From a virus (taxonomy: Duplodnaviria; Heunggongvirae; Uroviricota; Caudoviricetes), in the IMG/VR virus record IMGVR_UViG_2695420487_000019: a stretch of 5,898 nt of DNA. The stretch is one strand, 5' to 3'. Both the position numbers and the translations under genes were made by a program. Positions 317 to 5,898 of the stretch are shown piece after piece (positions within the stretch are counted from its first letter, which is position 1; every line of letters begins with the position of its first letter). The notes under the pieces were generated by a model. The model was given only the letters and a program-made list of their open reading frames with translations. It did no database searches and was not told where the DNA came from.

Positions 317-907
317 ATGTCTCGAATTTTTGCTTACTGTCGGATATCAACGCTGGATCAGACCACCGAAAATCAACGCCGGGAAATCGAAAGTGCAGGT
401 TTTAAAATCAAACCTCAGCAAATAATCGAAGAACACATTAGCGGCTCAGCAGCAACCAGTGAGCGTCCTGGTTTTAACCGGTTGCTTGCTCGCCTGAAAT
501 GTGGTGATCAATTGATTGTGACAAAACTGGATCGCCTTGGTTGTAATGCAATGGATATCAGGAAAACAGTGGAACAACTGACCGAAACAGGTATCAGAGT
601 GCATTGCTTAGCATTGGGGGGCATTGACCTGACCAGTCCAACAGGAAAAATGATGATGCACGTAATTTCAGCAGTCGCTGAATTTGAACGAGACCTTTTA
701 CTTGAACGCACTCATTCCGGGATAGTAAGAGCCCGCGGCGCAGGGAAACGTTTTGGTCGACCACCTGTGTTAAATGAAGAACAGAAACAGGTGGTATTCG
801 AACGAATTAAGTCAGGTGTAAGTATAAGTGCCATTGCCCGGGAATTCAAAACCTCGCGGCAAACCATTTTAAGAGCCAAAGCAAAACTTCAGACACCTGA
901 CATATAA
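317..907 (+). CDS. pinQ: Serine recombinase, DNA invertase of the Pin/Gin/Cin/Hin family (196 aa)
   Basis: Intact ORF, ATG at 317 and TAA at 905-907. N-terminus [15 protein letters not shown] has the resolvase/invertase catalytic motif (Y-x-R-I-S-T-x-x-Q, presumptive nucleophile Ser11). C-terminus [21 protein letters not shown] is a helix-turn-helix. The protein matches PinQ/PinR of the K-12 Qin/Rac prophages from memory. Symbol chosen from locus context (noh-cos, ynfO, ydfO, gnsB neighbours); pinR-type cannot be excluded without a search. Confidence 0.9.
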
Positions 908-1004: not shown

Positions 1005-1580
1005 CTACGGCAGTGCTGGCCATTCAATATCCGGTGCAGTTGATGTATCAACACGGTTCAGCAACACCCGATACTTTTTCCAGGCTTCCAGCAACAAGGT
1101 TTCTTCCTCCGTTGCGATCTCCAGATCCACAGCATCCTGAAGCGGCGCTATATGCTCACTGGCTATCTGCATCAGGCTGTTTTTTGTTTCTTCCGCCTCC
1201 CGGATCCGGAACAGTTTTTCTGCTTCCGTATCCTTCACCCAGGCTGTGCCGTTCCACTTCTGATATTCCCCTCCCGGCGATAACCAGGTAACATTTTCCG
1301 GTAACGGACCGAGTTCAGAAATAAATAACGCGTCGCCGGAAGCCACGTCATAAACCGTTTTACCCCGATGATCTTCAACGAGATGCCACGATGCCTCATC
1401 ACTGTTGAAAACAGCCACGAAGCCTGCCGGAATATCTGGCGGTGCAATATCGGTACTGTTTGCTGGCAGACCTGTATGAGGCGGAATATATGCGTCACCT
1501 TCACCAATAAATTCATTAGTTCCGGCCAGCAGATTATAAATTTTTATGGTCCGTGGTTGTTCACTCATTCTGAATGCCAT
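1005..1580 (-). CDS. tfaQ: Tail fibre assembly protein (Tfa, 191 aa)
   Basis: Intact minus-strand ORF beginning [24 protein letters not shown], the N-terminus I recall for lambdoid Tfa chaperones (TfaQ/TfaR/TfaE). Its start codon overlaps the stop of the upstream fibre-tip ORF in a TAATG arrangement at 1578-1582, indicating translational coupling. Convergent with pin. Confidence 0.85.
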
Positions 1581-1888
1581 TACGCAAGCCTCACAATATA
1601 GTTAAATGCGATGTTTTTGACGGTGTTTTCCGCGTTACCAGCAGCGTTAACGGTGATGGTATGTCCATGTGAACCAATCGCAACGGAGTGCGTATGAGCA
1701 CCAATACCGACAGTATGTGCGTGTGCACCTGCGCTTGCAGCAGTACCCGATACAGAGTGCGTATGAGCGCCTGCAGAAGAAGTGTTAACACTGTATTTAG
1801 AATAATCAGGTGATCCACTTCCCGGAGCACCACTGGAACCACCTGAAACAAATGTCATCGAATGGGTATGTGCACCGGCTGTCCCCAT
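1580..1888 (-). pseudogene. stfQ: Side tail fibre C-terminal tip fragment with repeated His-x-His motifs, joined out of frame to the upstream J-like fragment
   Basis: Translation carries five HxH units (GAHTHS three times, GAHAHT once, SHGHT once), as in the iron-coordinating distal tip of T4 gp37-type fibres. The frame is open upstream to 1984 but that stretch overlaps real J-frame coding sequence, so the Met at 1888 is not a natural start. The position between J and tfa matches lambda stf. The symbol follows locus context and is uncertain. Confidence 0.65.
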
Positions 1889-3135
1889 GCATTTACCGCC
1901 CGGACTGTCAGCCTGTAATTTCCCAGCGCCAGCTGCGTGAAGCGATATGTGGTTTCCGTCGTCCGGGCCGTGCTGACCAACCGCTCACTGCCGTCGTCCG
2001 CTGCCACGGTCAGGCGAAGCATAAAGCTCACCCCCTTCACCACCTTCGGCGTGTCCCAGCGCGCCAGCACCTGGTATTCCCCGCTGTCTGCGGTGACTTC
2101 TGCGGTCAGGTGCTGAACTGCTGGCGGCGTGACACCATTCACCGTGCCGCTCTGGTCACCGTCAAAGTGCGCCCCGTTATCCACGATGGCTTCTTTCTCC
2201 GGTACATGCTGCACGGCAGTGATGGCATACGTACCGTCATCGTTCTCACGGATACTCACACAGCGGAACAGGCGCTGACGCAGCGTCGGCAGCTTCAGCC
2301 CCCACACGCTGTACTCGGCAACGCCGTCAGGAACCCGGCTCACTTTCACCTTCACGCCGTCGGTGACGGACTGGACCTCCACGCTCACCGGATTACCCTG
2401 CCCGTCAACCAGGCTTATCAGCGTGGTGCCGGAGGATGGCAGCGTGATTTCACGGTCGAGCGTCAGTGTCCGCGTCTGGCTGTTCACCGCCAGCACGCGC
2501 CCGCCGATGCTGATCCCCGCATAGTCATCATCACAGATTTCAATGACATCACCTGGTACATGGCGAAGCCCTTCGGCACCCACGCTGAAGTCCACGGTCT
2601 GCGTTTCCAGCAGTTCCGTTTTAATCAGCCACAGCCCGGCTCGGTGCGCCTGCCCCCGCCTGGTACAGCCAAAGGCATCCATCTTCGTGACGTTACGACC
2701 GTAACGGGCAATGGCCTGCGTGTCCTCCACAAGCTCTGTCGCCGTCTCCCAGCCGTTATCCGGGTCAATCCAGTTCACCTCAACGGCATTATGGCGGTCC
2801 TTCAGGGCGCTGAAGCTGTAGCGGAACGGCGCGCCATCATCCGGCATCACCACATTACTGCGGTTATAGGTCCACACCTTATCTGATGGTCGGTCCTGCA
2901 CGAACGTCAGCGTCTGCCCGTTCCATACCGGCATACAGCGCATCGCCGAGCAGAAATCACTGAGAACATCCCACGCCTTACGCTGTGTGGTCAGCCAGGC
3001 ATTACAGGTGATGCGCGGCTCCGTGCCGCCAAAACCGTCCGGCACCGACTGGTCGCAACACTGGCCGATGACATACAGCGCCCATTTATCCACATCTGCC
3101 GCACCAAGACGTTTACCCATGCCGTAGCGCGGGTG
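1855..3135 (-). pseudogene. Internal fragment of a lambda J-like tail tip / host specificity gene (about 425 codons), missing its 5' end, with the 3' receptor-binding part replaced out of frame by the fibre tip
   Basis: The ORF 1855..3222 translation from about residue 30 (RYGMGKRLGAADVDKWALY...) to its end (...[23 protein letters not shown]) matches the central region and fibronectin-III-like repeats of lambda gpJ as I recall it. The first 29 codons of the listed ORF lie on Nu1 DNA in another frame and are spurious. Terminates 7 codons after AWGQ, at the junction with the fibre tip. Confidence 0.8.
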
Positions 3136-3370
3136 GCTGGAGATCTGTCTCGCTGGCCTGCCGCAGTTCTTCAACTTCCCGGCGCAGCTTTTCGTTCTCA
3201 ATTTCAGCATCCCTTTCGGCATACCATTTTATGACGGCGGCAGAATCATAAAGCACCTCATTACCCTTGCCACCGCCTCGCAGAACGGGCATTCCCTGTT
3301 CCTGCCAGTTCTGAATGGTACGGATACTCGCACCGAAAATGTCAGCCAGCTGCTTTTTGTTGACTTCCAT
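3113..3370 (-). pseudogene. nohA: 5' fragment of a lambda Nu1-type terminase small subunit gene (N-terminal winged-helix cosB-binding domain, about 78 codons, then 6 foreign codons and a stop)
   Basis: Translation MEVNKKQLADIFGASIRTIQNWQEQGMPVLRGGGKGNEVLYDSAAVIKWYAERDAEIENEKLRREVEELRQASETDLQP matches lambda gpNu1 residues 1 to about 78 almost exactly (from memory), then diverges to PALRHG-stop where the J fragment begins. It sits the same distance downstream of cosN as in lambda. Confidence 0.85.
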
Positions 3371-3595
3371 TGTTCATTCCACGGACAAAAACAGAGAAAG
3401 GAAACGACAAAGGCCAAAAAGCCCGCTTTCAGCACCTGTCGTTTCCTTTCTTTTCAGGGGGTATTTTAAATAAAAACATTAAGTTACGACGAAGAAGAAC
3501 GGAAACACCTTAAACCGGAAAATTTTCATAAATAGCGAAAACCCGCGAGGTCGCCGCCCCGTAACCTGTCGGATCACCGGAAAGGACCCGTAAAG
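3371..3595 (-). other. Lambda-type cohesive end site (cosQ-cosN-cosB), apparently intact
   Basis: The reverse complement of 3371-3559 reads GGGCGGCGACCTCGCGGGTTTTCGCTATTTATGAAAATTTTCCGGTTTAAGGTGTTTCCGTTCTTCTTCGTCGTAACTT...GAAAGGAAACGACAGGTGCTGAAAGCGGGC...TGTCGTTTCCTTTCTCTGTTTTTGTCCGTGGAATGAACA, near-identical to my memory of the lambda left end with its R3, I1, R2 and R1 elements. The reverse complement of 3560-3590 (GGGTCCTTTCCGGTGATCCGACAGGTTACG) matches the lambda right end and cosQ region. Confidence 0.85.
3548..3559 (-). other. cosN 12-nt cohesive-end core (GGGCGGCGACCT on the minus strand)
   Basis: An exact match to the lambda 12-nt 5' overhang sequence is seen directly at these coordinates. 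Confidence 0.85.

Positions 3596-4770: not shown

Positions 4771-5898
<1,128 letters not shown>

Follow-up and report, generated by a model that had tools for sequence, protein, structure and literature searches.

An out-of-frame J/stf junction in the cryptic Escherichia coli prophage Qin as a probable microhomology-associated deletion scar

Gene content of the locus

We compared the window, i.e., the whole 5,898-nt stretch of DNA analyzed here, with complete E. coli genomes and found it to be 99.9–100% identical to the Qin prophage locus. The gene order at this locus is ydfK–pinQ–tfaQ–'stf–J'–Nu1'–ynfO–ydfO–gnsB, and the annotation of NZ_CP144928.1 lists ydfK, pinQ, tfaQ, three pseudogenes (in order, 'tail fiber protein', 'host specificity protein J', and 'terminase small subunit'), ynfO, ydfO, a gnsB-family gene, and IS5; an IS5 element has also inserted into gnsB. 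A site between ydfJ/ydfK and ynfO–ydfO–gnsB–cspI, together with pinQ and tfaQ, is that of the cryptic prophage Qin (NZ_CP144928.1 and K-12 annotation). Judged by gene order and identity, the window represents the late-gene end of this cryptic lambdoid prophage of E. coli, adjoining ydfK, which precedes pinQ. Its main genes and gene remnants are as follows.

317..907, plus strand: pinQ, an intact serine recombinase gene of the Pin/Gin/Hin family (RefSeq annotation).
1005..1580, minus strand: tfaQ, an intact tail fibre assembly gene (Pfam Caudo_TAP, 2.4e-43; RefSeq tfaQ).
1580..1881, minus strand: 'stf remnant, consisting of a hybrid codon, the last 99 codons (A909–A1007 of the 1007-codon CV839-06 Stf), and the stop at 1582–1580 (98.9% identity, residue mapping).
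1878..3136, minus strand: J' remnant, lambda J residues 282–700 (419 codons; blastn to lambda J and CV839-06 J, Pfam, residue mapping).
3134..3370, minus strand: Nu1' remnant, codons 1–79 of the terminase small subunit (lambda nt 1–427; blastn, Pfam, residue mapping).

The J' remnant carries Phage-tail_3 (PF13550, 1.1e-42) and the first Ig_J domain (PF24421, 5e-35), the latter cut at profile position 90 of 104. It is without the N-terminal 281 and the C-terminal 432 residues of J, the latter including the receptor-binding domain, and PF24801, PF24489, PF09327, and PF12421, all present in the intact J of strain CV839-06, were not detected by Pfam in the J fragment of the window. J' falls short of a complete lambda J/TipJ protein in that the N-terminal FNIII-A, second Ig, tail-tip, and C-terminal receptor-binding domains are missing, and it is a fragment rather than a member gene of the lambda J/TipJ family. 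RefSeq describes it as 'host specificity protein J, incomplete, missing N- and C-terminus'.

The 'stf tip contains HxH repeats of the T4 gp37-like needle/tip, and a Pfam Phage_fiber repeat (PF03335) was found in the 102-aa ORF. Over its C-terminal 214 residues, the parental Stf gives an end-to-end alignment with the chain in PDB 2XGF (E 2.2e-87), which agrees with the T4 gp37-like tip described in a first-pass annotation of this DNA, and the 99 retained residues lie within this alignment. Pfam and alignment indicated that the phage_tail_N domain, the shaft/fibre repeats upstream of the tip, and the Collar domain of the 1007-aa CV839-06 Stf are absent from the window. In RefSeq, 'stf is a 'tail fiber protein, incomplete, missing N-terminus'. 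Downstream, the ATG of tfaQ overlaps the stf stop (TAATG).

On the other side of J', Pfam recognized the first half of Phage_Nu1 in the upstream 85-codon ORF. There, a second deletion joins Nu1 codon 79 out of frame to J codon 282, with the shared bases CCA at 3136–3134. No major tail protein, tape measure, or tail assembly genes are left in the window or in the remainder of the Qin prophage. J' and 'stf are probably non-functional pseudogenes.

The J/stf junction and the 4754-bp deletion

The corresponding chromosomal site of strain CV839-06 is occupied by a much less reduced prophage, in which J (1132 aa), lom, a complete stf (1007 aa), tfaQ, and pinQ follow one another. Positions 1–1881 of the window matched its pinQ–tfaQ–stf 3' end at 98.9% identity, and positions 1875–3136 matched its J at 94.3% identity and lambda J (nt 17608–16347) at 92.6% identity (blastn). 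The two aligned places are 4754 bp apart in CV839-06, and the window is the CV839-06 arrangement minus these 4754 bp. The switch of identity is genuine rather than a chance pattern: the match to stf stops at 1881, that to J sets in at 1875, and the 7-nt overlap between them marks the breakpoint.

1875..1881, minus strand: deletion junction, CAGCCGG (three-way alignment of window, J, and stf).

The first-pass annotation had located a frame change at 1876–1882, in good agreement with this measured breakpoint. In the three-way alignment, identity to J runs up to ...GCATGGGGACAGC, and identity to stf starts at CAGCCGGTGCAC.... The bases CAGC (1881–1878) are exact in both parents, whereas stf continues with CGG and the J references with AGG (CAGCAGG); within CAGC(C/A)GG, 6–7 of 7 positions match between the parents. 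On the side of J, the available references reach only 93–94% identity and do not include the actual parental allele, and the length of the microhomology is therefore given as 4 or 7 nt. In short, each flank of the junction is colinear with a gene of its own in CV839-06, where the locus is undeleted and the two genes lie apart, and a short sequence common to both parents lies exactly at the breakpoint, as in a deletion scar.

Missing at the junction are J residues 701–1132 (432 codons), all of lom, and Stf residues 1 to about 908. The deleted length is not a multiple of three (4754 = 3 x 1584 + 2) and its ends come from different genes, so that the remainder of stf stands in the −1 frame relative to J. 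For the same two reasons, an out-of-frame join was the likelier outcome (2/3 of the possible phases).

The alignments give the parents, the breakpoints, the deletion size, and the frames directly, and the following course of events is suggested by them. The ancestor would have had the usual order J–lom–stf–tfa–pin, and one illegitimate recombination would have joined J codon 700/701 to stf codon 908/909 at the short shared sequence. Illegitimate recombination of this type is RecA-independent, e.g., replication slippage or end joining at microhomology, and a mechanism of this kind is probable here. As the sequence itself shows, the J frame now reads seven nonsense codons and then a stop, and the 99-codon stf tip has lost its own start and lies behind a fortuitous ATG and chance-open J DNA. 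We consider it very likely (probability of roughly 0.94) that the J/stf join is a microhomology-associated deletion scar in Qin that left two dead gene fragments in the course of ordinary prophage erosion. Among the explanations offered by the first-pass annotation, namely a frameshifted deletion scar, a sequencing error, or a site of slippage, the first was borne out by the 4754-bp loss relative to CV839-06, whereas the other two were not.

A Pin-mediated site-specific origin of the junction was also considered and rejected: the Din-type crossover core (AAACCnnGGTTT) did not occur above chance level within the window, and the parental stf contained no good gix/hix-like site.

Two reading frames across the junction

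The J frame lies on the minus strand, in the codon phase of ORF 3222..1855 (455 codons). It is J-like as far as Q700 (codon 1881–1879), after which come seven foreign codons, PVHIPIR. The tip frame, on the same strand and −1 relative to J, runs from the ATG at 1888–1886 to the stop at 1582–1580 as a 102-codon ORF ending in ...NYIVRLA. Both frames are open over 1855–1984 (130 nt), and the coordinates that had been given in the first-pass annotation for the J frame, the tip frame, and their overlap of ~130 nt were all exact. The features that delimit the overlap are as follows.

1855..1877, minus strand: out-of-frame tail of the J frame in stf DNA (PVHIPIR) and the stop TGA at 1857–1855 (translation).
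1855..1858, minus strand: ATGA, made up of an ATG in phase with the tip frame (M of HSMTF) and the overlapping TGA that ends the J frame (sequence reading).
1886..1888, minus strand: chance ATG within sequence stemming from J (AAT GCA TGG, out of the J frame), which opens the 102-codon tip ORF.
1985..1987, minus strand: TGA that closes the tip frame upstream; intact J genes have it too, in the same frame (sequence comparison).

Upstream of the ATG at 1888, the tip frame has 32 open codons within J DNA. In the intact J genes of lambda and CV839-06, the −1 frame is equally open past the junction point and has the same TGA, which indicates that the upstream openness of the tip frame predates the deletion. 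Runs of at least 33 open codons span about 6% of positions in that −1 frame of lambda J, consistent with the earlier suggestion that the tip frame is open upstream to 1984 by chance. The ATG at 1888–1886 reads GTG in a divergent allele from strain Z1323CEC0014, and the ATGA at 1858–1855 is a possible point of termination–reinitiation. The two-frame overlap is a by-product of the deletion and not a recoding device.

Distribution of the junction and order of deletions

We searched complete E. coli genomes with a 41-nt probe centred on the junction, of which neither half alone can seed megablast. The exact 41-mer was found in 90 of 5426 genomes; every match was perfect (100% identity) and chromosomal, and no genome had more than one. 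With a 61-nt probe (blastn), 91 of the 5426 genomes matched, and 90 of them were identical over 61 nt. Within the 61-nt probe, the sole variant, Z1323CEC0014, differs by two substitutions and is free of indels, leaving the frames unchanged. Its flanks are ~3% diverged overall and ~6% diverged in the ~120 nt of J adjoining the junction, and its seven J-side differences are all synonymous in the J frame. To account for this divergence, one must assume that other prophages later donated sequence by gene conversion or that an identical deletion took place independently a second time. A single ancestral, vertically inherited event may underlie the junction, which recurs in 90–91 genomes and across five upstream structures. 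Outside the complete E. coli genomes, the junction was present in none of 50,697 deposited phage genomes and was not found in the GTDB species-representative genomes. Among viral records, only nine IMG/VR fragments of 4–13 kb contained it.

The breakpoint in J, equivalent to lambda nt 17608, is common to at least five upstream deletion structures, which keep the following lambda-equivalent nucleotides before the stf tip.

Window type: 1–427 and 16347–17608.
ML35 type: 1–703 and 17302–17608.
F829: 1–701 and 16726–17608.
NCTC9040: 1–703, 2177–3470, and 16136–17608.
1332KP: 1–956 and 13434–17608.

Of these, ML35 is a laboratory strain in common use, and 1332KP retains L, K, and I along with the complete N-terminal 700 codons of J, and it is 100% identical to the window type on both sides of the Nu1/J junction. 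The Nu1/J junction itself was found in only 25 complete genomes. Because the J/stf junction is common to five upstream structures and the Nu1/J junction is limited to these 25 genomes, the J/stf deletion appears to have come first, with independent nested deletions after it. Through these later deletions, separate lineages would have lost the head and tail genes that lie between Nu1 and J, and in the lineage of the window this second event would have joined Nu1 codon 79 to J codon 282.

Alternative explanations

The tip peptide might be made, folded with the intact TfaQ, and put to use by the host, e.g., in blocking a phage receptor, by analogy with StfE2 of the prophage e14. The small Stf C-terminal chimera StfE2 is reported to reduce adsorption of phage T2 (PMC12529663). 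Moreover, none of the five decay variants has lost the tip, tfaQ, or pinQ, which K-12 also keeps in a different form, and the ATGA and TAATG overlaps would permit coupled translation of J', the tip, and TfaQ, which is conceivable from the arrangement of starts and stops. Selection may act on the tfaQ–pinQ block, which is intact in every variant, and hence some use of the tip fragment may be made. If this were true, a host-protective tip would explain the survival of tip–tfaQ–pinQ in every decay variant. However, such retention is explicable by chance deletion endpoints and selection on pinQ alone, and the report on StfE2 found no inversion in Qin and mentions neither stfQ nor tfaQ (PMC12529663). 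In addition, the ATG at 1888 is not conserved, being GTG in Z1323CEC0014, and lacks a good Shine–Dalgarno sequence; no sigma-70-like promoter for the tip ORF was found near the junction, where the match count was not above that of shuffles. In the alignment to 2XGF, the fragment also starts partway along the HxH needle, so that half of the interlocking strands are missing and folding into the native trimer would be unlikely, and RefSeq annotates the tip as a pseudogene. We therefore regard a host function of the tip as very improbable. Equally doubtful is its more specific form, in which a gp37-like peptide of ~92–102 residues, made by reinitiation at the ATGA or from the ATG at 1888, would protect the host by receptor occupancy or by poisoning T-even-type fibres.

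A second possibility, less probable still, is that ribosomes on J' slip by −1 and produce a fusion of J', a linker, and the Stf tip, in analogy with lambda G/GT. The candidate site is a heptamer within the overlap.

1918..1924, minus strand: G_GGA_AAT, a canonical X_XXY_YYZ heptamer in the J frame, at which a −1 slip enters the tip frame.

The slippery site of lambda G/GT is G_GGA_AAG, from which the heptamer at 1924–1918 is one base off; it lies in the J frame within the 130-nt overlap, where the −1 frame leads to the tip, and the divergent allele of Z1323CEC0014 retains a heptamer (G_GGA_AAC). Against this, about 0.18 such heptamers are expected by chance per 45 codons, and lambda J has three in frame elsewhere. 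The intact J genes of lambda and CV839-06 encode the same residues but have no heptamer at the equivalent place, which means that G_GGA_AAT rests on a synonymous third-base difference in a Gly codon. The 88 nt downstream of the heptamer fold no better than shuffles (z = 0.07), and in E. coli, AAU or AAC in the A site shifts poorly relative to AAG. Furthermore, the overlap exists only through a recent deletion, J' in the window has lost its own start along with the N-terminal 281 residues and is out of frame with Nu1', the prophage is without other tail genes, and the slip product would include 13 nonsense residues. Of the features of a programmed frameshift, a heptamer in the overlap is present, whereas conservation in intact homologues and a downstream stimulatory structure are not. 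We judge G_GGA_AAT to be a chance occurrence.

The weakest alternative, a sequencing or assembly error in which the true sequence has one base more or fewer and forms a continuous J–Stf ORF, is effectively refuted by the population data: single-base indels are frequent errors in general and the junction adjoins a GGGG run, but the identical 41-mer recurs in 90 independently assembled complete genomes, the sole 61-mer variant has substitutions rather than indels, and an in-frame version would still be the 4754-bp deletion product of two separate genes. An artificial in-frame chimera of J and the tip was also searched against a collection of 5.8 billion proteins, and none of the best 120 matches spanned both halves. 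Coverage among these matches was 46–52% except for one at 64%, a pure Stf fragment, and the best score was that of one half; the in-frame J–Stf fusions that the first-pass annotation had proposed to look for in homologues were thus not encountered among them.

At the end of a contig (P0044) in a draft assembly, J after ...NAWGQQG is joined in frame to a different, O157-type Stf shaft. This join is not contiguous in any complete genome, and we regard it as either an assembly artefact or a scar of unrelated origin.

The idea that a 1-nt shift would create a continuous J–Stf chimera with an unusual tail tip, as raised in the first-pass annotation, is not supported, and a functional tail tip protein is not expected. 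This is because the J piece comprises only residues 282–700 and is out of frame with the 79-codon Nu1 stump, and because Qin is without major tail protein, tape measure, and tail assembly genes. The idea is also countered by both findings that the annotation itself had listed as speaking against it: the 91 homologous loci have the same junction in the same frames, and the tip aligns to a separate gene, the 1007-codon stf, whose first ~908 codons are missing here.

Significance of the deletion scar

The J/stf junction is already covered by existing annotation, in which both pieces are RefSeq partial pseudogenes. Internal deletions that leave out-of-frame stumps are an expected route of prophage decay, and the significance of this one is small. 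Neither recoding nor a new tail-tip architecture should be claimed for the 130-nt two-frame overlap. Nevertheless, the junction provides a clean marker of one Qin-variant lineage (91 of 5426 complete genomes), and the at least five further deletion structures that arose from this lineage offer a small worked example of stepwise prophage erosion.

Comparison with known systems

Qin of K-12 occupies the same chromosomal site, with the flanking genes ydfJ, ynfT, and ydfK on one side and ynfO, ydfO, gnsB, and cspI on the other, and it has the same pinQ and tfaQ, with about 98–99% DNA identity outside the deleted zone. Both prophages hold late-operon remnants from internal deletion. In K-12, however, Nu1 (lambda nt 1–719; nohA) is joined directly to the last 320 codons of stf (stfQ) and no J fragment is present, whereas the window has only 79 codons of Nu1, a 419-codon J fragment, and only 99 codons of stf. 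The deletions in the two forms of Qin are independent.

DNA identity to phage lambda is 92.6% for the J fragment (lambda J nt 16347–17608), 93.8% for tfaQ together with the last 150 nt of stf, and 98% for the Nu1/cos region. Lambda has complete genes, whereas in the window J is without residues 1–281 and 701–1132, lom is absent, and stf is without about 90% of its length. Upstream of its last 150 nt, the tip does not resemble lambda at the DNA level; its counterparts there are other Stf alleles of E. coli and T4 gp37. With T4 gp37 (2XGF), the parental Stf shares an alignment of 214 residues that takes in the HxH repeats and the final segment, but the window keeps only roughly the last 100 residues of the chain, without the collar and the first half of the needle.

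The heptamer G_GGA_AAT resembles that of the lambda G/GT frameshift (G_GGA_AAG) in its form and in its position in the upstream frame within an overlap. Unlike the lambda site, it is missing in intact J homologues, has no stimulatory structure, lies in an overlap made by a deletion, and is associated with two products of which neither is a functional gene.

StfE2, a small Stf chimera reported to be created when PinQ inverts the P segment of e14 (PMC12529663), is likewise a small Stf C-terminal protein in a cryptic prophage with a Pin recombinase. StfE2 arises by reversible site-specific inversion and has been tested experimentally, whereas the junction in the window is an irreversible deletion, known from sequence, without a Din-type site above chance. 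The report on StfE2 concerns a different locus and lends some support to the idea, of low probability for Qin, that Stf stumps can be useful.

A second deletion junction fuses J codon 282 to codon 79 of the terminase small subunit gene Nu1, with 3 nt, CCA, common to both sides. This join is also out of frame: past it, the Nu1 frame runs to ...DLQPPALRHG and a stop at 3113, and the 455-codon ORF of the tail-tip gene remnant J' is opened by an ATG at 3222, an out-of-frame position inside Nu1 DNA. Only 25 of 5426 complete genomes carried this junction. The features concerned are as follows.

3113-3370, Nu1 frame up to its end past the junction
3134-3136, Nu1/J deletion junction
3371-3559, cos-side region
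~3548-3571, lambda-type cohesive end site (cos), intact: GGGCGGCGACCT, with ...CGACAGGTTACG before it

Window positions 3134-3559 were 98% identical to lambda nt 427-1. Since cos is intact and the Nu1 region is lambda-like, the prophage retains cos and the N-terminal DNA-binding part of Nu1, although the terminase large subunit is absent from it.

We found an identical Nu1 breakpoint, ...GATGAACTGATA/ (the slash marking the break), in the structurally different Qin variants of strains ML35, F829, and NCTC9040. Among the compared loci of other Qin variants, the Nu1 3' end lies at the following positions.

L009, 5315
L010, 5896
L008, 6127

Three different partners follow the common breakpoint, starting with GATAACGGGG (J), GATAACGGCTGG (J), and GATAAAGGGG (A). 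This Nu1 position is a recurrent left breakpoint with microhomology of the GATA(N)(N)GG type.

Other E. coli genomes encode in-frame fusions of the Stf tip present in the window with at least five unrelated N-terminal partners, namely Nu1, the K/C40 peptidase, a DUF1441 terminase subunit, a ParB-like protein, and a Cro/YdaS-like protein (fusion proteins P0081, P0088, P0079, P0069, and P0073). Four of these fusions have an identical Stf join point, ...(P)D/MRGWTIKGKPAS (Stf residue ~839), where no Din-type crossover site was detected. This site, in the conserved collar motif, may be a hotspot for recombination. One draft-assembly contig end encodes a protein (P0044; L021 10001-10850) in which J is joined in frame to O157-type Stf shaft sequence after ...NAWGQQG, two codons past the J breakpoint of the window. 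Early phage genes lie directly upstream of this join, which was found contiguous in none of the complete E. coli genomes; the join represents a scar of independent origin or else an artefact of assembly.

The Z1323CEC0014 allele (L011 1213-1655) has the same J/stf junction as the window, with flanks diverged by ~3% overall and by ~6% within the ~120 nt of J adjoining the junction. Within this stretch, all J-side differences (7/7) are synonymous in the J frame. The pattern suggests that, once the deletion was in place, other prophages with functional J and stf alleles acted as donors in gene conversion; alternatively, the deletion may have occurred a second time.

The outer parts of the window hold two further elements.

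317-1004, stretch holding the intact serine recombinase gene pinQ (317-907)
4772-5898, IS5-family element with an ISKpn26-like transposase, starting with GGAAGGTGCGAATAAG at 4772

The IS5-family element is placed inside the 5' end of gnsB. The window is colinear with other genomes up to 4771 and no further, and only one complete genome matched it entirely in a single colinear piece.

The window contains only one stf/tfa set, and a search of it for a Din-type crossover core gave none above chance level; PinQ is therefore without a local inversion target. This is consistent with the published action of PinQ in trans on prophage e14 (PMC12529663).
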